A stretch of DNA of 62,522 bases, the filler included, from Chloroflexota bacterium (GTDB lineage: Bacteria; Chloroflexota; Chloroflexia; QHBQ01): NCBI GenBank assembly GCA_043754535.1. It is 6 parts of 6 records of this genome, joined end to end, with 100 filler letters (N's around TTAATTAATTAA, not from the genome) between each part and the next. Parts side by side here need not be neighbours in the genome. Positions count along the whole stretch, not along the records: positions 37,977 to 44,101 come from JAYUUN010000013.1; 5 more parts are not named here. One strand, written 5' to 3'. Positions within the stretch are counted from its first letter, which is position 1, and each line of letters begins with the position of its first letter. Shown here piece after piece: positions 7,775 to 44,101 of this stretch. Under the pieces are notes generated by a model, which saw nothing but the letters and a program-made list of their open reading frames with translations, searched no databases and was not told the DNA's origin. A program made the position numbers and the translations under genes.

Positions 7775-8227
7775 TTACAGGGTGCAGCGGCTCGCGCTCT
7801 CCTGCTCTAACTGCCCACTGCCTGGTGGCGGCCAAACGATCAGCCAGTTGTTAGCCTGGCGCAGGAGAACGGCGGTTTCGTTCTGCGCCGTCTTGCTGCC
7901 ATCCTCCAGCGTCAGTTCGATGCTGTAGCTGACGGCGGCCCGACTACCCGCAATGATCGGCCTGTCACTCACCTTGAGGACAGCAATATCCTTGATCTTC
8001 GCTGCCATCCGTGCCTGCTTCAGCCGCCCACTGAACGCATCCGCCGTTAGCTTCGAGCGCGAGTCCTCGCTGATCAGTGTGTATGCGTCGTTGTACCGCT
8101 CCTCCTTCTGGGCCTGGAGAAACTTGCTGACGACGGTCGGTGGCTCATCGGTTGGCGTGCCGCTGTCGCAGGCTGCGACGGAGAGGGAGAACAGCAGTAG
8201 CCCCACCAGTAGAAGCGTTTTCCGCAA
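7775..8227 (-). CDS. lipoprotein, NTF2-like (DUF4878-like)
   Basis: Lipobox VAAC; 'VVSKFLQA....YNDAYTLIS' and terminal W.I pattern. Confidence 0.65.
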   Translation of the reverse strand: MRKTLLLVGLLLFSLSVAACDSGTPTDEPPTVVSKFLQAQKEERYNDAYTLISEDSRSKLTADAFSGRLKQARMAAKIKDIAVLKVSDRPIIAGSRAAVSYSIELTLEDGSKTAQNETAVLLRQANNWLIVWPPPGSGQLEQESASRCTL

Positions 8228-8264
8228 GTAGCCACCTCAATCTGCCCCACAGGGCCACACCCTA

Positions 8265-9644
8265 TCAGTGGGCGATATAGCCCTCGCCCAATGCGCCGAT
8301 GCTACGGTCGTAGGCGGTAAAGCCGATCCAGCCGTCGCGGTCGAGGTCGCTAGCGGCAACCAGTTCTGCACCGCGGGTGGCCCAGGTTGTGGCAGGCATC
8401 CGCCCCTTGTAGCCAGCGTTCAGCACGTAATGTGCGGCCAGCCCCTGCACGAACTGGCCGGGGTTGGCATAGCGGTCGTTGGTTACCAGCAGGTCTGCCT
8501 TCTGGCTGCTCTGCAATATGGTAGCTACCTGTTCGCTCATCGTGTCGATGGTGGCCGCCTGGGCAGCGGAGAGGCCGCCGACAGTGACCGCCACCGCGAC
8601 CTCGTAGAGCGCACCATTGATGTTGATGTTCACCTGCGCCCAGTTGGTCTGGCCGGGTAGCAGCAGCTTGCTGTCTGGCACGCTGAAGCTGAAGCTGAGG
8701 CCAGCGGTGGTGTCAAAGGCAGGCGGATCAGCCTTCAGCCAGGGGCTATTGCTGCTGACCGTCCCGCGCAGCAACACATTTTGCGGGTTGTCGCGCAGCA
8801 GCACGAAGGTATGGGCAGGGATCGCCGCGCCGCTCTGCCACACGCCGAGGTGGATCAGGCTGAAGCTGGTATCCAGTCGGGGTGCGTTCAGGCCACTCGT
8901 TTCGATCCCTGGTTGGCCGAGGGCGAAGGGAGCGCGCTCCAACCCTGCTGGCCGCATAGCGGCGGTGGGGCGCGGTGCAGGCGTAGCTGGCGGGGACGAA
9001 GCAGGTGGCATCCCACCTGCGGGGGCGGCCACGCTGACCGCCACCGAGGTGCTGTCGTCGGTGTTAGTGTCCCGGTCGCTGATGATCAGGGTCGCCTTAA
9101 AGCTGCCCAGTTTCTTGTAGACGTGTTCCGCTGTCACCCCCTCTGCCTTGCCGCCATCGCCAAAATCCCAGCGGTAGTGGCTGATCGCGCTGCCACCCTT
9201 GCTGTCGCGGCTGGCCGAGGCATCAAAGCGCACGCTCTGCTCGAAGGCGACTACGCTGGTGAGCGAGGTAGCGATCACGGCGCGGGGCGGCTGCGCCTTG
9301 CTATCTACCACCTTGATCGTGGCGGGCAGGGCTGGTAGCGGGGTGGCCTGCACGTCGCATAGGAATGCCGCCCGCACCGTATAATTGCCAGGCTGGGCGT
9401 AGGTGTGTGTCACCGGCCAGCCTTCGCCCGTGCCGCCGTCGCCAAAATCCCAGCGCACGGGGCAGGGGCTAGGCCGTTCCCCCAGGCCAAGTGTTACCTT
9501 CTCGCCCGGTGCGATTGTGGATTTGGAGGCACTCTGGTTGAGGTCGGTGCCGCCACCGCTAGCCCCTGAACCCTGCGGCAGCAGCAAGTAAGCGACCACT
9601 ATCACCAGCAGGCCGAGGGGAATAGTGCGCTGTCGTTGGCTCAT
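8265..9644 (-). CDS. secreted protein with two PKD domains and an Ig/BACON-like segment
   Basis: Two WDFGDG motifs with HTY..PG.Y / HVY...G.F; signal peptide. Confidence 0.85.
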   Translation of the reverse strand: MSQRQRTIPLGLLVIVVAYLLLPQGSGASGGGTDLNQSASKSTIAPGEKVTLGLGERPSPCPVRWDFGDGGTGEGWPVTHTYAQPGNYTVRAAFLCDVQATPLPALPATIKVVDSKAQPPRAVIATSLTSVVAFEQSVRFDASASRDSKGGSAISHYRWDFGDGGKAEGVTAEHVYKKLGSFKATLIISDRDTNTDDSTSVAVSVAAPAGGMPPASSPPATPAPRPTAAMRPAGLERAPFALGQPGIETSGLNAPRLDTSFSLIHLGVWQSGAAIPAHTFVLLRDNPQNVLLRGTVSSNSPWLKADPPAFDTTAGLSFSFSVPDSKLLLPGQTNWAQVNININGALYEVAVAVTVGGLSAAQAATIDTMSEQVATILQSSQKADLLVTNDRYANPGQFVQGLAAHYVLNAGYKGRMPATTWATRGAELVAASDLDRDGWIGFTAYDRSIGALGEGYIAH

Positions 9645-27620: not shown

Positions 27621-28409
27621 TTGCCCAAAACAGCCCGCCGCGCCCGCATCTTCGCCCTAGCCAACCAGAAGGGGGGCGTGGGTAAGACGACTACCGCCAC
27701 TAACCTCGCCTCCTACATCGCGGCGGCGGGGCGGCGCGTCCTCTTGATCGACTCCGATCCGCAGGCTAATGCCACCAGCACCCTCGGCTTTGATAAGAAC
27801 GAGATTGAGATATCGCTCTACGACGTACTGATCAGGGAGCAGCCCGCAACTGATGCTATCCTGCCCAGCGGTAGGCCAGAGTTTGACGTGCTGCCTGCCG
27901 CCCCCGAACTGGCTGGGGCTGAAGTTGAACTGGTCAACATGGGCAACCGCGAGCATCGGCTTACGCAGGCGATCAACTCGGTGGCAGGTAGCTACAACTA
28001 TGTGTTTATTGACTTGCCCCCTTCCCTCGGTCTGCTGACGGTTAACGCACTGACTGCTGCTGACGGGGTGGTGATCCCGATCCAGTGCGAGTACCTCGCG
28101 CTTGAGGGGCTGGTGCAACTGGATAACACGATTCACCTGGTTAGCGAGAACCTGAACAAGCGGCTAAAGATCGCGGGTATAGTGATGACCATGTACGACA
28201 GCCGCAACAATCTGGCTAACCAGGTGGTCGAAGAAGTGCGCCGCCACTACCCGAATGACCTGTTCGAAACCCTGATCCCGCGCAACGTGCGGATCGGTGA
28301 AGCCCCTAGCTATGGGCAGACCATCCGCGAGTACGACCCCAATTCACGTGGCGCGCAGGCGTACAAACAGCTAGCCACTGAGTTTCTGGCACGCATTGAA
28401 GGACAGTAG
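27621..28409 (+). CDS. soj: chromosome partitioning ATPase Soj/ParA
   Basis: NQKGGVGKTTT, DSDPQANAT, PPSLGLLT, QCEYLALEG, IPRNVRIGEAPSYG. Confidence 0.95.
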   Translation: MPKTARRARIFALANQKGGVGKTTTATNLASYIAAAGRRVLLIDSDPQANATSTLGFDKNEIEISLYDVLIREQPATDAILPSGRPEFDVLPAAPELAGAEVELVNMGNREHRLTQAINSVAGSYNYVFIDLPPSLGLLTVNALTAADGVVIPIQCEYLALEGLVQLDNTIHLVSENLNKRLKIAGIVMTMYDSRNNLANQVVEEVRRHYPNDLFETLIPRNVRIGEAPSYGQTIREYDPNSRGAQAYKQLATEFLARIEGQ

Positions 28410-28411
28410 CA

Positions 28412-29485
28412 ATGGCAAAAGGCGGTCTGGGTAGAGGACTGGGCGCACTAATACCGGGCGGTGGCAACCAGCCAGCGGAGCTTCGGCCTGTGCCGAAAAC
28501 GGGCCGCAACCAACCGCCCCTGGAGCGCAATGACGACGCGCCAGGGCAGGAGCAGGCCGAGGTGGCAGGGCCGCCGCAAACCCCTAACACGACCAATATG
28601 CCACTGCTTGAGGTGCCAGTCGCCCACATCCATCCCAACGAGTTCCAGCCGCGCATCATCTTCAACGAGGGCAAGTTGCGCGAACTGGCCGACTCGATCA
28701 AGGAGCATGGCGTGATGCAGCCGCTGGTTGTCACCAAATTGACCCTCCCGCCGCTACCGCCCCGCCCAGGTCGCAAGCCCGAACCCGTGCAACTCTACCA
28801 GTTGATCGCTGGGGAACGCCGCCTGCGCGCCGCCAAGCTGGCTGGGCTGACCACAGTGCCAGTGATAGTCAAGGAAGCCAGCGACGAAGATCGCTTGTCA
28901 TTGGCCCTGGTGGAGAACATCCAGCGTGCTGACCTCGGCCCGACTGAGGAGGCGCAGGCCTATCGCCTGCTGATCGACCAATTCAACCTCACCCATGAGG
29001 GGGTGGCGAAGCGCGTCGGCAAGAACCGTTCGACGATCACCAATATGCTGCGGGTGCTTGACGGTACGCCAGAGACGCTCGCTGCCCTCAGTGCCGAGCG
29101 GATTACGATGGGTCACGCGGTCGCTCTACGTGGCATCACCAACCGCGAAGGCGAGCTTGCTATCCTCAACAAGGTGATGGAGGAGGGCCTGAGTGTAAGA
29201 GCGACCGAGAATCTTGCCCGCGAGGTAGAGGAGCGGGGCTTGAGCGGCCTTACTTCGCAGGGCGAACTGCGCGGCGTAGCTGTCAGCAGCCACACCCGCC
29301 CTGGCCCTGCCCTCCGCCTCAACGCCGACGACCGCGCCATCCAAGAACGCTTCAGCGGCGCACTAGGCACTCGCGTGGAGTTCAACCGCAACGGCAAGAA
29401 GGGCAAGCTGGTTATCTACTACGACGATGAGGAGATTTTGCAGACGATCTACGAGAAGATCGTGGGCGAGGATCAGGGTTTCTAG
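28412..29485 (+). CDS. parB: chromosome partitioning protein ParB/Spo0J
   Basis: GLGRGLGALI, QPR, IAGERRLRAA, ENIQR, canonical HTH GKNRSTITNMLR. Confidence 0.95.
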   Translation: MAKGGLGRGLGALIPGGGNQPAELRPVPKTGRNQPPLERNDDAPGQEQAEVAGPPQTPNTTNMPLLEVPVAHIHPNEFQPRIIFNEGKLRELADSIKEHGVMQPLVVTKLTLPPLPPRPGRKPEPVQLYQLIAGERRLRAAKLAGLTTVPVIVKEASDEDRLSLALVENIQRADLGPTEEAQAYRLLIDQFNLTHEGVAKRVGKNRSTITNMLRVLDGTPETLAALSAERITMGHAVALRGITNREGELAILNKVMEEGLSVRATENLAREVEERGLSGLTSQGELRGVAVSSHTRPGPALRLNADDRAIQERFSGALGTRVEFNRNGKKGKLVIYYDDEEILQTIYEKIVGEDQGF

Positions 29486-29512
29486 ACCGCTTGATCTTGA
29501 GTGAGCAGTTGT

Positions 29513-37976: not shown

Positions 37977-38072
37977 GGGCAAGTTTGGCTTAGAACAAGG
38001 CCCACTGACTAACTTTGGCGAGCGAAGCAGTGGGTTTCTTGTTGCCTGCGAACCCCACAGGCTGAGGTGCTG

Positions 38073-38315
38073 CTAAACTGCTAGTTCGACCTCCTGTTGC
38101 ATACGGTCGTACTCCTCGGCCCTGGCGAGGAGCCGTTGGTACTCATGGATGTTCAGCAGGACGGCAATGAGCCTACCATCCGATTTGATCACGACGGGTT
38201 CTTTGGGGGCTTCCGACAGACCGGCGGCTAGTGCGGAAAACCTGCTTTTGACCTCCCGCACGCCTATAGCTCTGTCCTGCAAGTTAAGTGTAACTGCCAG
38301 ATGTTGGCTGTCCAT
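38073..38315 (-). CDS. Phd/YefM family antitoxin-like protein
   Basis: IGVREVKSRFSAL...EPVVIKSDGRLIAVLLNIHEYQRL. Confidence 0.85.
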   Translation of the reverse strand: MDSQHLAVTLNLQDRAIGVREVKSRFSALAAGLSEAPKEPVVIKSDGRLIAVLLNIHEYQRLLARAEEYDRMQQEVELAV

Positions 38316-38405
38316 GATGCCCCCTTGAAACCTCTGGTGTGACTCAAGTCACTTGTGATGATCCTACACGATCATGCGGCTGCTGTCAATAGTTTTTCCA
38401 CAAGT

Positions 38406-38463
38406 ATCGTCCGCTTTATCAACCGGAATCGTCCGCTTTATCGTCCGGTGAATCGTCCGCCCT
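38406..38463. repeat. about 12-bp tandem repeat ATCGTCCG(CTTT), 4-5 copies, spanning the stop codon of the AlbA_2 gene
   Basis: ATCGTCCG at 38406, 38428, 38440 and 38452, plus a degenerate copy at 38418. Confidence 0.8.
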
Positions 38464-39945
38464 CAGCAGGCGATCAGGCAGGTGGTAGCGAATCGCCCGT
38501 GCCTTGCCCCGTTGCTCCGCCACGCCGAGAGCTACCATACCGCCGAGGTCCTCATAGGCAACAGTGCGGCCCAGGTTGAACCTTGCCTGGTACTCGTCGC
38601 GGTTGATGCTGCCGCCACCATGCTTCAACCAGGCGGCCAGCAGGGTGCGTTGCCGCTCGTTGAGCTTGAGCCAGGTTGTCGCGGGGAGGGGTGGTTTTTC
38701 GTCGTCTCCGCTATCAACTGATGGTTGTACAGTTGGGGCGGCCACCGCCGCAGACCGGCGGAAGACAACCCGCACCCAGTTCGGCTCCGCGTGGAAGGAT
38801 GGTTCTGGTAGGCCAGCCTCACGCATAATCGAGCGCATCCGCCAGACTCCTGTCCCCCACTTTTCCGCAATGGCTGCGAAATAAGCCATCGCCCCGATGA
38901 TGTGGTTGCGAAGTTTGTGACGACCTTCCAGGCTGTCGGCGGTCAGTCCGGGAGGCAGCCCGCCAGGGCTGATGATCTCGATACGGTCGGGGAAGATGTA
39001 GAGCGAGACCGGCACCCGCTCCGAATAGCTGCGGTGGAGCAGGGCGTTGACGACCGCCTCACGCACGGCGGTGATGGGGTAGTCTGGCCGCTCCTCGCGG
39101 TATGCGCCCCGGATGACCGCGCCGAGGCGCGTGTTACGGGTGACGAAGGCAAGGGCAGCGTTCAACTGCGCCTCGATGGTGCCGCCCGCCTCGGCGCGGT
39201 CGAGGAAGGTCACACCCTCATCGGCAAAGGCCGCCAGGCGGGTGACGGCGTGTGGCACCATCGCCTGCGGCTCTGCGCCCAGCATCAAGAGACCGGCCAT
39301 GGTCGGACGCGGCTGGTCTCCACTCAGGTTGATGGCACGCAGGTCGTCCAACTGCTTGAGGGCTAGCTCGTCGGGGTACTGACCGCTCGGCAGTTGCACG
39401 CCAGTACGTAGCTCGGCCAGTGTAGCCCGCTGGAGCAGAAATCGGCGCACCAGGTCAGCATCCAGCGCGTCCAGGCCGACGGCCATCGGGTGCGCGTCGA
39501 AGTCCTGGCTCATGCGGTTCAGCACCAATTCCTTCAACTCGTCGCCGAAGACGGCGACATTGTGCGACCCTTCCCGCCGCAGATGCTTGCCGCTGTAGGA
39601 GTACAACTGATCACGTAGCGGCGGCAACTGGCAGACGATTACTGCCTTCCCCTCCACCTCGACCATGTATACATTCAGGCTGGCATGAACAGGTGGGCGA
39701 CAACCATGCGCCGCGTTAATAACCTTCTGCATCACGTCGTTGACCTTGATTGGCGTCACGCCCTGCACCCGACGGTCGTCGGTAATGCCGATCAGGATCA
39801 CGCCACCGTCGCTGTTCGCCAGCGCGACCAGTAGTTCGGATAGGTCAGGCTGGTTCTCTCCTTCTAGCTTGAACTCGACAGTCTGGCTCTCGCCTGTATT
39901 GACCAGGGCCATGATCTCCTCAGCGGTCAGTTTTGCCACTACCAT
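38419..39945 (-). CDS. Schlafen AlbA_2 + HATPase_c_4 (RecG C-terminal-like) + wHTH protein
   Basis: GESQTVEFK, ALANSDGGVILIGITD, YP..AVREAVVNALLHRSY, IEIISPGGL, RN..I, EKWGTG; C-terminal RTVAYEDL...G..R..RY. Confidence 0.9.
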   Translation of the reverse strand: MVVAKLTAEEIMALVNTGESQTVEFKLEGENQPDLSELLVALANSDGGVILIGITDDRRVQGVTPIKVNDVMQKVINAAHGCRPPVHASLNVYMVEVEGKAVIVCQLPPLRDQLYSYSGKHLRREGSHNVAVFGDELKELVLNRMSQDFDAHPMAVGLDALDADLVRRFLLQRATLAELRTGVQLPSGQYPDELALKQLDDLRAINLSGDQPRPTMAGLLMLGAEPQAMVPHAVTRLAAFADEGVTFLDRAEAGGTIEAQLNAALAFVTRNTRLGAVIRGAYREERPDYPITAVREAVVNALLHRSYSERVPVSLYIFPDRIEIISPGGLPPGLTADSLEGRHKLRNHIIGAMAYFAAIAEKWGTGVWRMRSIMREAGLPEPSFHAEPNWVRVVFRRSAAVAAPTVQPSVDSGDDEKPPLPATTWLKLNERQRTLLAAWLKHGGGSINRDEYQARFNLGRTVAYEDLGGMVALGVAEQRGKARAIRYHLPDRLLRADDSPDDKADDSG

Positions 39946-40387
39946 CTCTCCTGTTGTAGAGTTGTACTCACCATATCAACCCCCTTTATTGTGAAGGGGT
40001 TGGCTTCCCTGCAACGCTGTCAGCGAGCTACGCTCTTGTGGGATGGTTGCCGCTCGTCGTGGGCGTGGTGCTACTGGCCGAGAGGCAGGCATAGCCTCAA
40101 CCAGCAGCGGCAAGGGTGGCGCGAGGAGCTGCTCCTCGTTGATCTCTTGCAGCCCGGCTGTAACTTGCCGATGCCAAGTGCTGGTGCGCTGCCGCTACTC
40201 CTTCTGATCTACTGCCATGTTTCCACCTCCATGTTCAGAGGCGAATCGACGACCCACCCGCGTTTGTGGTAGTGTCGCTGTTGCCGCCACCCTGCGCTAT
40301 CAGGTCGTCGGTAAAGCACTACCCTGCTGCCGATGTTCCAGATAGGTTGTGGGGTGTTTTGTTTCATCCGCTGTCAGCGGATAATGC

Positions 40388-41209
40388 CTAACTGCTCAAC
40401 TCGTCAATAGCACGATCCATCTGCTCACTTACACGCTGGGCGGCTTCCCGTGTCTTGGTCAACTCGGCAATCGCTTCATTGAGCTTCACTGGGTCACGCT
40501 TTAGCCTGTCCTTGCTAGCCACCAGTCGTTCAGCACGGACAATGTACGTGTTGAGTGGGCGGTAGGGATCAGGTCGCTGGCGGGCATTTGATCCGCTGTC
40601 AGCGGATGGTGTGATTGTCTGCTGATCCGCTGTCAGCGGATTGTAACTACGCATCTGCTCCATTGTAATATTGCCCGCAAGGTATGCATCCAACGCAGCC
40701 TTATTCTCGGCAGCATAAACCCGATCCTCCACGTAGTCGGTTGACTTGCCTATCAGCTTACCAAGCCGGGCGTTAGTGCAACCTGTACGGTTCTTGAAAG
40801 CGAGGAACGCTACTGCTTCTTCGGCGAAGCCAAGCTCTTGCCGTTGCAGGTTCTCGACCAAGCTGACTATCTCAGCCTGCTCGTCGTCATACTCTTTGAT
40901 CACGACTGGCACAGACTTCAATCCGGCTTGCTTCGCCGCATTAAGGCGGCGGCTACCGGCAACCAGAATGTAACCACTCTCACGAGCAGGCCGCACGACG
41001 AGCGGCTCGATGATGCCATGCTGCTGTACGCTGGCAACCAGTTCAGCCATTGGCGCAGGGTCATAGGTTGAGCGAGGTTGAAAGGGGTTGGCTGCAATGT
41101 CATAGGGATTGACTTCCAACGGCGTGGCGGATTGCTGTTCGTCCTGTGTTTCTTCCGTTGCGGTTAGGAAGGATAGTTTAGCCTTAGCGGGTGGATTGAA
41201 TTTAGCCAT
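40388..41209 (-). CDS. parB: ParB/RepB/Spo0J family partition protein (plasmid/MGE type)
   Basis: NPFQPR, GIIEPLVVR, VAGSRRL.AA, ENLQR; non-canonical HTH GKSTDYVEDR. Confidence 0.92.
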   Translation of the reverse strand: MAKFNPPAKAKLSFLTATEETQDEQQSATPLEVNPYDIAANPFQPRSTYDPAPMAELVASVQQHGIIEPLVVRPARESGYILVAGSRRLNAAKQAGLKSVPVVIKEYDDEQAEIVSLVENLQRQELGFAEEAVAFLAFKNRTGCTNARLGKLIGKSTDYVEDRVYAAENKAALDAYLAGNITMEQMRSYNPLTADQQTITPSADSGSNARQRPDPYRPLNTYIVRAERLVASKDRLKRDPVKLNEAIAELTKTREAAQRVSEQMDRAIDELSS

Positions 41210-41975
41210 TTGCCCACCCCTCTACTCTGTCAGCCAGCGCAACCCAAGGCTGGGCTAGTTGTGGCGCGTGTATCACCAACGGTAGCCGCATGGTGTCGCT
41301 CTCTCCATATTTGGTACTCACGGCTATTGGCTCACAAACGGTGTCCCCATAAGCCTCCTGCAACCGTTCGAGGTGATGTTGATGCAACTTCGTGCCTCGG
41401 TACTGAGTTGGCTGTATGGCGATTATGGGCAGAGGGTTGCGCTTGGATGGACGCAAGTGCTGGATCGTGTTCATCAGCAGCACCAATCCCATCAGGCTAG
41501 CTTCCTCGGTCTGGGTAGGGATGATCAAGCCATCAGCAGCACGGATAGCGTTGGTCGTCAGCACCCCTAGGCTGGGGGGGCCGTCAATGATGATGTAATC
41601 GTATTGCTCGCGCAACCCTGCGTTGGCTATTTCGTCTCGTAGCACATTAGCGAAACCGTCAGGACGGAACAGCAAATCTTGCTCGGCCTGAGCCAACCCG
41701 ATGTCAGCCACCACCGTGTCACACCAGTCGAACCCACCGCTCTGCAAGCGATAAGGCTGCCACTCACGTCCTAGTAGCAAATCCAGTGTCGTGTACTGAG
41801 GGCTAAACGTTTCGTTGTCCGGCTCCAGACTCAGGCTGGTAAGGCTGGCTTGTGGGTCTAGGTCGATCTGCAGCACCTTGCAGCCACGTTGCTTTAGCAC
41901 CACCGCCAGGTTACGGACGGTTGTCGTCTTGCCAGTACCGCCTTTCTGGATTACTACACTAATAACCTTGCCCAT
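41202..41975 (-). CDS. parA: ParA family partition ATPase (plasmid/MGE type)
   Basis: QKGGTGKTT, DLDPQASLT, YDYIIIDGPPSLG; overlaps parB start. Confidence 0.93.
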   Translation of the reverse strand: MGKVISVVIQKGGTGKTTTVRNLAVVLKQRGCKVLQIDLDPQASLTSLSLEPDNETFSPQYTTLDLLLGREWQPYRLQSGGFDWCDTVVADIGLAQAEQDLLFRPDGFANVLRDEIANAGLREQYDYIIIDGPPSLGVLTTNAIRAADGLIIPTQTEEASLMGLVLLMNTIQHLRPSKRNPLPIIAIQPTQYRGTKLHQHHLERLQEAYGDTVCEPIAVSTKYGESDTMRLPLVIHAPQLAQPWVALADRVEGWANG

Positions 41976-42021
41976 TCCCTACTCCTCTCGGTTGATCCGC
42001 TGTCAGCGGATCGTGCATCTG

Positions 42022-42276
42022 CTATGGCTGCCCTGTACCAGCTTCTGCGTCTTCCTGATCCGCTGTCAGCGGATCGCTGTCCAGATATGACTTGAACGCT
42101 GCCCATTCATTGGGTGCAATGCGGAACTGGCGACCGTAGCGGCTGGCCTTCAGCTTCCGACCGCGGAAGCCCACCTTGATCCATGCGCGGATGGTCTCGT
42201 CAGAGACACTAATCTCTTGCGCAGCATCTACGGTGGTTAGCATTTTGCCCTTGCTCTCTTGACTATCTTGGCTCAT
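42022..42276 (-). CDS. excisionase/MerR-like HTH (HTH_17) protein
   Basis: MLTTVDAAQEISVSDETIRAWIK.G....LKASRYGRQFRI. Confidence 0.88.
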   Translation of the reverse strand: MSQDSQESKGKMLTTVDAAQEISVSDETIRAWIKVGFRGRKLKASRYGRQFRIAPNEWAAFKSYLDSDPLTADQEDAEAGTGQP

Positions 42277-42293
42277 ATGGCTGTTCTTGCTCC

Positions 42294-42322
42294 ATTATAT
42301 ACGACGTTGATCTGAATGTCAA
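42294..42322 (-). promoter_or_regulatory. consensus sigma70 promoter of the HTH-parA-parB operon
   Basis: Minus strand TTGACA (42322-42317) - 17 nt - TATAAT (42299-42294). Confidence 0.85.
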
Positions 42323-43012
42323 GCGGATGATAGCACAGACTAGCCAATTGAGCAAAGATAACAAATCATCCGCTGACAGCGGATCGTTAAGAAGCAGCAC
42401 CCTCCGCTGTCAACGGATCAGACAACAGAGGGACCGCCACCTCTCGGCAGCGACCGCTCACAACGACTACGACGACTTGGTTGTGACTGACTACTCCCCA
42501 CGCTTGACAAGCGGCGCAGCGATGGCGGGGTCAACGTCGGCTTCAAAGCGGGCGAAGGTCACTTCCTTGTCATGAACCTGCGCGGCGGTGTCGCTCGGCA
42601 TGGATTGGATCAGCGCGAAGTTAGCGTGCAGCGCATCTGCACGCTGGTTGAAGATCATCTCAAAAGCGGGTACTTGCCCAGCACTGGCAGCCTGTAGCTT
42701 TTTGCGGTGGGCAGCCCGCTCCCTCGCCGGCGCGCCTACCACCAGCGGCAGCAGAGCCAGTGCGCCGAAGCTACTTATCCCCAAGAGGCTATTGCCGGTC
42801 TTGAGTTGGTGATCGGTCGCCCGGATCGTCGGGAGCCAGCGGCAGCGACTCGGCCAGCCGGTGGGTCAGATGGTAGTTGGAGAACAGCCCATGATTAGTC
42901 AGGTATGCCGGTAGCTGATCCACACTGCACCACTCCTGCAGTATATTTGTTGGCCGCATTGTAGCACAAGGGGCAGGGTTTGGGGAGTCGGTATGAATAG
43001 CAATCCAGCCAG

Positions 43013-43041
43013 TTGACAACTACGTACAACTGTTCTACAAT
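43013..43041 (+). promoter_or_regulatory. sigma70 promoter
   Basis: TTGACA - 17 nt - TACAAT, then GGAGGG RBS and ATG at 43070. Confidence 0.75.
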
Positions 43042-43069
43042 AGGCTCATCCTAATCTTGGAGGGCCACC

Positions 43070-43698
43070 ATGAAGCTGAAGAACGATTACGAACTGGTCG
43101 GGCAGATGTTGCGCCAGAAGTTTGAGGAGAGCGGCCACAACGTGTTTACCGTCGCGCACGGTATAGTAGCATTATAGTCACGCGGCTGCACTGGCTGGCA
43201 CGTGGTGGCCGCAGCCGCCGCAACCGGCGGGAGATCGAAGCGATGCGCCGTGCCTTTGGCGACGAGTTCGCCGCTGGGCTGCAAGCCGCCGCCGGTCACA
43301 CCGCTGCCCAGTCCGCCAAGCAAGACAAGGAAGCCGAGGTGACAGCTCGTGTCCTGGGTAAAGAGATCGTTCGGCTGCGCGAGGAGCTTGCGCTCAACGA
43401 AGCCGAGGGTGACGAGCCTGAGCTACGGACGGCGGTGCTGACCATGCTAGAGCAGTGTCAGCAGCACCTTGACGGCTGGGCTACTTATCGCCAGAGCAAT
43501 TACGATCGCGCCGCCGACTTGCTGACCGCTGCTGAACATCTCTACAAAGCCGCCGACCTGACCTACCGCGCCAGCCACCCGCCGGTGCGTCCGCACGAGC
43601 AATGGGCCGACGCACCTCCACATCGCTACCGCTACGCCGTAGACGAGGCCAGCCGATGGTGGTTGCGGCCCGCCACTCAGCAAGCGAGTGCCAGCTAG
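43070..43698 (+). pseudogene. frameshifted gene, XRE-like HTH N-terminus plus helical C-terminus
   Basis: ORF 43070-43177 (MKLKNDYELVGQMLRQKFEESGHNVFTVA) continues in the -1 frame (ARYSSIIVTRLHWLARGG...MRRAFG) to 43698. Confidence 0.55.
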
Positions 43699-43864
43699 TC
43701 TGTAACCGTGCCGAATGTTGCGCCGAGCAGGGGTTAGAGTGTGACCCCTGCCGGTTGGTTGTTGGGCAGCAAAGCATCCCGGTAGGGTGAGCGTGGCACG
43801 CTCCAAAGTGTAGGGGTCACAAAGCGACCCCTTGCTGATCTGCTGCTGTAGCCGTCTGCTTCCA

Positions 43865-44101
43865 TCATTGCTCCTCCTCGTCCTGCGACCCCAAGTTGAG
43901 GCTGCTCAATTCGGTGTCATCCAGCCAGCTCCATATCTCCTGTTGCAGTGGGCCAAGCTCTGGGCGGTTGGCTATGTTCGTCACCTTCGCCAGCCGCGCC
44001 GCCGTGGTCAAGGCCCACTCTACTGGCACGTCCACGCTCTCGATCTTGCTCTCCAACGCTCGCTTGAGGTGCAGCAGCCGACCCTCCCCACCAGAGGTGA
44101 T
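43865..44101 (-). CDS. 5'-truncated hypothetical protein
   Basis: Frame runs to the contig end. Confidence 0.45.
   Translation of the reverse strand: MTSGGEGRLLHLKRALESKIESVDVPVEWALTTAARLAKVTNIANRPELGPLQQEIWSWLDDTELSSLNLGSQDEEEQ

Follow-up and report, generated by a model that had tools for sequence, protein, structure and literature searches.

Which protein reads the palindrome that recurs through the par operon of contig C13, and to what end? The locus lies in a stretch of 62,522 nucleotides (the window) from a Chloroflexota bacterium (assembly GCA_043754535.1) in which six contigs are joined; C13 (JAYUUN010000013.1) occupies positions 37977-44101 and encodes, on the minus strand, a small helix-turn-helix (HTH) protein, a ParA ATPase and a ParB, among which copies of a 17-bp palindrome are interspersed. 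Judged from the sequence and its relatives, the palindrome is most probably the parS of the non-chromosomal ParB of C13, and the Chloroflexia replicon that carries both would be plasmid-like. The earlier note on this DNA had proposed the ParAB system of a mobile replicon with its own odd-length centromere, and this core proposal is supported by comparative evidence from relatives. The system is of a known kind; the sequence of the C13 site and the radiation of such sites in the Chloroflexia were not found in print.

Copies and Distribution of the Palindrome

Seven candidate parS sites of the form ATCCGCTG-W-CAGCGGAT were located by the motif scan, all at the positions first reported, and six of these are exact. 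Two lie upstream of the operon promoter, at 42402-42418 (two mismatches) and at 42368-42384, the latter 45 bp upstream of the -35 box. A third covers the final codons of the HTH gene (42058-42074), and a fourth, in the gap between that gene and parA, adjoins the parA ribosome-binding site (41995-42011). Two are within parB: one immediately behind helix α6 (40625-40641, codons 190-195) and one, in a different frame, in a predicted disordered linker (40591-40607, codons 201-206). The last is shortly 3' of the parB stop codon (40366-40382). The peptides previously read from the intragenic copies are correct, namely NPLTAD from parB codon 190, PSADSG from codon 201 and DPLTADQ from HTH codon 68.

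With up to three mismatches allowed, the window contains eight matches as compared with 0.32 expected, and none of 100 shuffles attained eight; the eighth match (25190, three mismatches) is on a different contig and looks like chance. A scan of the assembly (132 contigs, 3,872,131 bp, 89% complete) placed 6/6 exact copies on C13, to which the motif had appeared confined, and found two unrelated matches with two mismatches, on C70 and C73. The seven sites span 2.05 kb near parAB, with no exact copy elsewhere in the assembly. A genome-wide repeat of the repetitive extragenic palindromic (REP) type, with many extragenic copies, had been named beforehand as the finding that would overturn the proposal; no such spread was found, the six exact copies being on one 6-kb contig. 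A search of 400 other genomes sampled in the phylum did not find the palindrome. Viral contigs gave exact matches at two loci, each holding a single copy and showing no ParB in a tblastn search, and these were taken as chance.

An 11-bp core at 40015-40025, previously counted with the sites, is indeed present, as is one other such core outside C13 in the genome. Compared with the complete 17-bp motif it has six mismatches, and the strain variant L025 and 4/4 other sequencing runs have a changed first base. The core is possibly a decayed site at best and is doubtful as a working one.

The locus itself is real, because L025 is a strain copy of it with 99% identity and because it is also present in four sequencing runs, which come from four studies, with one contig extending over 38027-43901. 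Strain differences fall inside the seven sites in 0/49 cases, and a second comparison shows 40/66 differences, none in a site; these clean sites carry no weight because only about 1.2 differences were expected in the first comparison.

The Operon, Its ParB and Its Replicon

The operon is preceded by a sigma-70 promoter, TTGACA-17-TATAAT (42294-42322, minus strand, 12/12 match), both boxes of which are kept in the orthologous par locus L138. In L138 the sites are at the same three places as in C13, with their inner bases altered together; one variant is upstream of the promoter, about 40 bp from the -35 box, and the end of the HTH gene reads DPLGSD in place of DPLTAD. The first gene (42022-42276, minus strand) encodes an 84-residue excisionase-like HTH_17 protein with a Pfam score slightly below the cut-off. 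It is followed by a Walker-type ParA of 257 residues with no N-terminal HTH (41202-41975, minus strand; AAA_31, E 5e-38), whose gene overlaps the start of parB (40388-41209, minus strand).

The ParB of 273 residues scores 94 bits with ParB_N (cut-off 26) and 110 with TIGR00180 (cut-off 58) and comprises a CTPase domain with the motifs G85-S-R-R88 and ENLQR, an HTH with the sequence GKSTDYVEDR, helix α6 (MEQMR, residues 183-187), a linker and a helical C-terminal domain. The structural model has the usual three domains, a mean predicted local distance difference test (pLDDT) score of 79.5 and low confidence in the linker (residues 195-210), and it matches structures of ParB, Noc and KorB with E about 1e-11. 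In the alignment, T157 and E184 take the places of chromosomal R173 and G201, which does not fit a ParB of chromosomal type. A word-based protein search with the C-terminal part returned its own cluster and weak generic matches only. The adjacent Walker-type ParA, the three-domain ParB and the clustered palindromes confined to C13 are together those of a type I HTH-ParB ParABS system.

C13 likely belongs to a plasmid-like replicon. The Phd-like antitoxin gene is followed in L025 by a gene resembling those of replication initiators (phrog_270, E 2e-6), and the Atlas neighbours of the latter include DnaA_N, HTH_36 and Phage_rep_O. The nine contigs with a non-chromosomal ParB hold 0/46 tRNA genes on 233 kb, where about 2.8 would be expected. 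The closest named relatives are Chloroflexia or Chloroflexota metagenome-assembled genomes.

The source genome encodes ten ParB_N proteins. The chromosomal ParB is on C8 (window about 28400-29500), and its helix reads GKNRS rather than the GKSRS given for it earlier; the seven canonical parS-like sites, for which two mismatches were allowed, all lie on C111 (71127-73047) and not on C8. Paralogues have palindromes of their own, which differ and are each confined to one contig, with three copies on C112 and four plus one on C104. On C112, ATCCGAAG-G-CTTCGGAT occurs upstream of parA, in the parB linker and downstream (L019:1970-5139). The C112 ParB is 44% identical to that of C13, with the helix GKSTDYVELR in place of GKSTDYVEDR, and between its site and the C13 site the three inner bases of each arm are all that differs. 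The parB of C104 contains TATTTCAG-G-CTGAAATA four times with a 48-bp period, seen in the protein as a repeated FQPEI peptide (L020:4683-6655), and a fifth copy with one mismatch is downstream of the gene. On C5, an imperfect 18-bp site has two copies within parB.

Further palindromes accompany other ParB-like genes in the genome. TAGTCCAA-G-TTGGACTA is present two to three times upstream of a divergent ParB-like gene (C125:2108-2558) and once within a related gene (C102:551). Another ParB, without a site in its linker, has paired TGTTAGA-NNN-TCTAACA palindromes downstream (C57:14094-14208), and the pair is kept in a genome of the same genus (L152:7847-7960).

Sites in Related parB Genes

The survey of relatives started from 147 places with a ParB_N match, in 40 genomes belonging to the order; four unpublished genomes contribute to tallies only. 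Of the 125 places that lie outside both the source genome and the unpublished genomes, 119 were fetched, the six top-scoring and probably chromosomal ones being left out. The set was completed with the ten loci of the source genome, three from metagenomes and two from a different family within the class. Two of the resulting 136 reading frames were dropped as not ParB, and the remaining 134 were reduced to 116 at 90% identity, comprising 21 of chromosomal type and 95 that lack the chromosomal GHA motif and are designated non-chromosomal-type.

Palindromes at homologous parAB loci, which the earlier note had proposed to look for, are present: 33/95 non-chromosomal-type ParBs have a perfect 8-1-8 palindrome of their own after the DNA-binding domain, and 0/95 have one before it. 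No chromosomal-type parB has one (0/21), and 30 synonymous shuffles gave 0-4. Palindromes with spacers of 0, 2, 3 and 4 were found in 3, 3, 6 and 0 genes, respectively. Three of the 33 genes (L170, L185 and L226) look like chance, leaving about 22/25 distinct arms. In 31/33 genes, no more than 45 codons separate the first copy from helix α6. The 54 intragenic copies use the three frames 28, 25 and 1 times; with two frames about equally used, it is the DNA that is kept and not one peptide. In genes with several copies, the spacing is a multiple of three in 23/24 by hand count, the exception being C13 itself. The distances of exactly 34 bp between 40591 and 40625 and between 42368 and 42402, pointed out previously, are correct, but they therefore have no meaning for the family.

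Genome-wide, 3/3 copies of the G476 site are inside its parB, on a 481-kb contig with 0/52 tRNA genes. Of the two copies in G403, one is inside parB and the other is on a different contig. A related pattern matched twice in a five-contig genome from another family, each time on the contig that holds its parB: once inside the gene and once 6.5 kb away.

Sites of other geometry were also seen. In the clade with the helix GKGKGYVEKR (L193, L194, L203 and L205), an 8-2-8 site, TGTCTCCC-NN-GGGAGACA, occurs once or twice in the linker, and the spacer length of the linker site thus differs between clades. In L190, L195, L196 and L252, a perfect palindrome is in an insertion at the α6 region of the DNA-binding domain and not after it.

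Other Possible Readers and Roles of the Palindrome

It is improbable that ParB reads the sites mainly as a KorB-like operator or silencer that controls the operon and adjacent mobile-element genes, perhaps with the small HTH protein locking ParB in the manner of KorA and KorB, and with partition secondary or absent. The site 45 bp upstream of the perfect promoter, and likewise that of L138, is within the range reported for distal OB sites of KorB (PMC11790492), the C13 ParB model resembles KorB (8qa9, E 1e-11), and a small DNA-binding gene stands at the head of the operon. However, an intact parA adjoins parB and, at 26/39 loci to which a site was assigned, the fetched 2.5-13 kb contain no copy outside parB, with none upstream. 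Silencing of this type is compatible with a parS function and does not exclude it.

A role of the excisionase-like HTH protein as reader of the palindrome, alone or jointly, is a little less probable again. One copy is in its gene and others flank it, and L138, the sole other searched locus with the HTH gene, has its sites at equivalent positions. In contrast, at C112 and L135-L137, whose ParBs are the closest relatives with ATCCG...CGGAT sites, the fetched DNA gave no match to the HTH protein at E ≤1. The suggestion that the palindrome is shared with this protein is not supported, because, besides a strain copy, only one close relative of it was found among the searched loci (L138, E 4e-21). 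Similar HTH domains are fused to the N terminus of ParA in several relatives, which is the known autorepressor layout of class Ia systems (PMC7022226). The C13 ParA starts at the Walker A motif and so lacks the DNA-binding domain that plasmid class Ia has at the N terminus; with a separate HTH gene upstream and HTH-ParA fusions in relatives, the operon appears to work like a split class Ia arrangement. Because it has a close relative in one locus only and is fused to ParA in others, the HTH protein is probably a split-off autoregulator of the operon rather than a reader of the palindrome. A large protein set gave no match at E ≤0.001 in which this protein is extended by fusion, a negative of little weight. 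Next to the -35 box, on its upstream side (42323-42345), 18 bp are conserved with L138 and are available as a candidate operator for the HTH protein.

Least probable of all is a structural or selfish repeat (REP-like, an RNA or single-stranded DNA hairpin, or a recombination site) unrelated to ParB binding: the arms can pair, one copy is flagged as terminator-like and two copies share flanks (30 nucleotides, 87% complementary), as expected from duplication, but the palindrome is not genome-wide and was not found in the 400 other genomes, some copies are upstream of the promoter and hence outside the transcript, terminator-like predictions are at chance (6 as compared with 4.4 expected), and across the family the length is fixed, the sequence is locus-specific and exactly repeated, and the position is fixed behind the ParB DNA-binding domain.

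Residues of ParB That Vary with the Site

Of the specificity residues of Caulobacter ParB, R173 reads the outer base of parS and position 201 faces an inner base (PMC7383237). Among the 39 ParBs with an assigned site, the inner three bases of the arm correlate with residues 200-204 (r 0.23, p 0.002; 500 permutations, with N-domain and scaffold distance controlled). Gln at position 200 accompanies A7 in 11/11 cases as compared with 5/28 for other residues, and C8 accompanies Lys or Arg at position 201 in 12/13 cases and Asp or Glu in 1/6. Swapping of cassettes by recombination was also considered: pairs with discordant identity in the N-domain and the DNA-binding domain exist among the survey ParBs. 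A rule joining N201 to G8 fails, with two G and three C; protein P0021, represented by its protein sequence only, has QNQ with linker peptides that fit an AAC-type site and also counts against this rule.

ParB and its centromere would be genetically tied because the sites in parB sit in codons of a tolerant linker just after the specificity helix. We advance only tentatively the broader idea that the Chloroflexia parB is a self-contained cassette of gene and centromere, in which sites multiply by in-frame duplication of the linker and the inner bases follow a code. With the specificity helix and the cognate parS within about 150 bp of each other, the two could change or be swapped together and so yield many compatible partition types. 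If the cassette idea were true, the mutually compatible types (about 22 arms) would form a natural collection for studying how ParB specificity evolves and a source of orthogonal DNA labels.

Several observations weigh against the palindrome being the parS of a plasmid-like replicon, or against the generality of such sites. With relatedness removed, the correlation between the recognition helix and the outer bases is not significant (r 0.09, p 0.10). The residue-base pattern is a lead and not a code, because kin are not independent, the independent pairs for any residue-base rule number only 2-4, and 9/39 arms in the correlation test were assigned by hand from imperfect or upstream copies. Co-variation alone is no proof of recognition, because an intragenic site is inherited with parB. 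Among the non-chromosomal-type ParBs, 62/95 have no perfect 8-1-8 site and whole clades have none, and 19 survey loci were first chosen by likeness to the C13 ParB. C13 is a 6-kb fragment, its plasmid status is presumptive, and no closed molecule was seen. Lastly, the QPR, GxRR and EN motifs for cytidine triphosphate (CTP) are present in the C13 ParB, but the Box II glutamate, which we take to lie within the GERR motif, is replaced by serine (S86); it is glutamate in 21/21 chromosomal and 30/39 site-bearing ParBs. This glutamate is catalytic in Myxococcus ParB (10.1101/2021.05.05.442810), yet ParB1 of the Streptomyces coelicolor plasmid SCP1 also has serine at this position and is an active CTPase (PMC13245405).

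Proposed Mechanism and Significance

On the pattern of established ParABS biology, from which we infer binding, CTP clamp behavior, partition, repression and plasmid status alike, a ParB dimer would bind the 17-bp 8-1-8 palindrome ATCCGCTGACAGCGGAT with one arm per HTH, load as a CTP-dependent clamp and spread over the operon. The co-encoded ParA would then move the ParB-bound replicon, the seven sites acting as its centromere. Sites adjoining the promoter and the start of parA may in addition lower operon expression, in the way that OB acts for KorB (PMC11790492).

For an uncultured Chloroflexia replicon, a specific centromere is thereby predicted, although the C13 locus by itself is ordinary in kind. 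Dozens of ParBs with a predicted site inside their own gene make it possible to test directly how ParB specificity and plasmid compatibility evolve, and C13 and C112 provide a near-matched pair in one genome with sites that differ only in inner bases. The family also offers candidate orthogonal ParB/parS pairs for DNA labelling.

Neighboring Genes and Other Features

Beyond parB on C13, the minus strand encodes a Schlafen AlbA_2 and RecG-C-like protein (38419-39945) and a Phd/YefM-like antitoxin (38073-38315) that is below the Pfam cut-off. The C112 par locus is also followed by an AlbA_2/RecG-C gene, but in two reading frames. The AlbA_2 protein was considered as a reader of the palindrome and rejected: its gene is 3' of parB on C13 and C112, but none was seen downstream in L138. 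Short repeats with a 12-22-bp period extend over the 3' end of the C13 AlbA_2/RecG-C gene (38393-38459), and a promoter-like site (38389-38361) adjoins them. At 42888-42909, seven differences from other strains are clustered in 22 bp, and the surrounding DNA is 99% identical. The flanks of the C112 par locus (L019:116-1846 and 7949-8879) contain a restriction-modification-type gene, a Cas6-like gene and apparent CRISPR repeats. Downstream of the L138 par operon (L138:409-6604) are genes for an M23 peptidase, a glucosaminidase-like protein and a DnaJ-like protein, which could belong to a conjugative element.

Comparison with Known Systems

No paper was found on a parS of a Chloroflexota plasmid, on a 17-bp 8-1-8 parS or on family-wide placement of sites in the linker, in a search that left most subscription papers, supplements and figures outside its reach; a figure on SCP1 could already show linker placement. 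The suggestion that the C13 system is new in kind is superseded, since odd-length parS sites around and inside a plasmid parB have been published for SCP1 (PMC13245405). The parABS1 and parABS2 systems of this plasmid have 13- and 19-bp inverted repeats verified by chromatin immunoprecipitation sequencing and biolayer interferometry, and they resemble C13 in having a type I HTH-ParB with odd-length repeats around the operon and in the cognate parB. Each SCP1 parAB has three identical repeats, one of them inside parB, whereas C13 has seven copies with two inside parB, and the SCP1 ParBs show strict specificity against co-resident ParBs. C13 differs further in the site sequence, in its 17-bp 8-1-8 form and in the separate HTH gene that heads the operon.

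The parSm of the Thermus thermophilus megaplasmid is similarly a replicon-specific palindrome inside its parBm, bound by ParBm and not by the chromosomal ParB; unlike the C13 sites it is a single 14-bp site of even length, described with no survey of a family (PMC4409726). Like the Chloroflexia family, the Bsr replicons of the Burkholderiales have related ParBs and replicon-specific palindromes that resemble chromosomal parS (PMC5450999), and many arms of the Chloroflexia family begin with TGT. The Bsr sites are 16 bp with a central CG, whereas the Chloroflexia sites have 8-bp arms and one free central base and are in linker codons.

KorB and OB of RK2 share with C13 a ParB-family protein and dispersed sites, some of them near promoters (PMC11790492), and Vibrio parS2, a 15-bp inverted repeat, shares its odd length (PMC3688505). 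Both have other sequences, and C13 has no sign of regulation beyond the par operon. PMC5352709 and an Azospirillum preprint proved to have no bearing on intragenic parB sites. A parS inside the gene is also a feature of the chromosomal parB of Bacillus subtilis (PMC4333373). Chromosomal ParB/Spo0J proteins have the same fold and domain order as the C13 ParB; their parS is 16 bp and their R173 and G201 are described as invariant (PMC7383237), whereas the C13 ParB differs at both residues.

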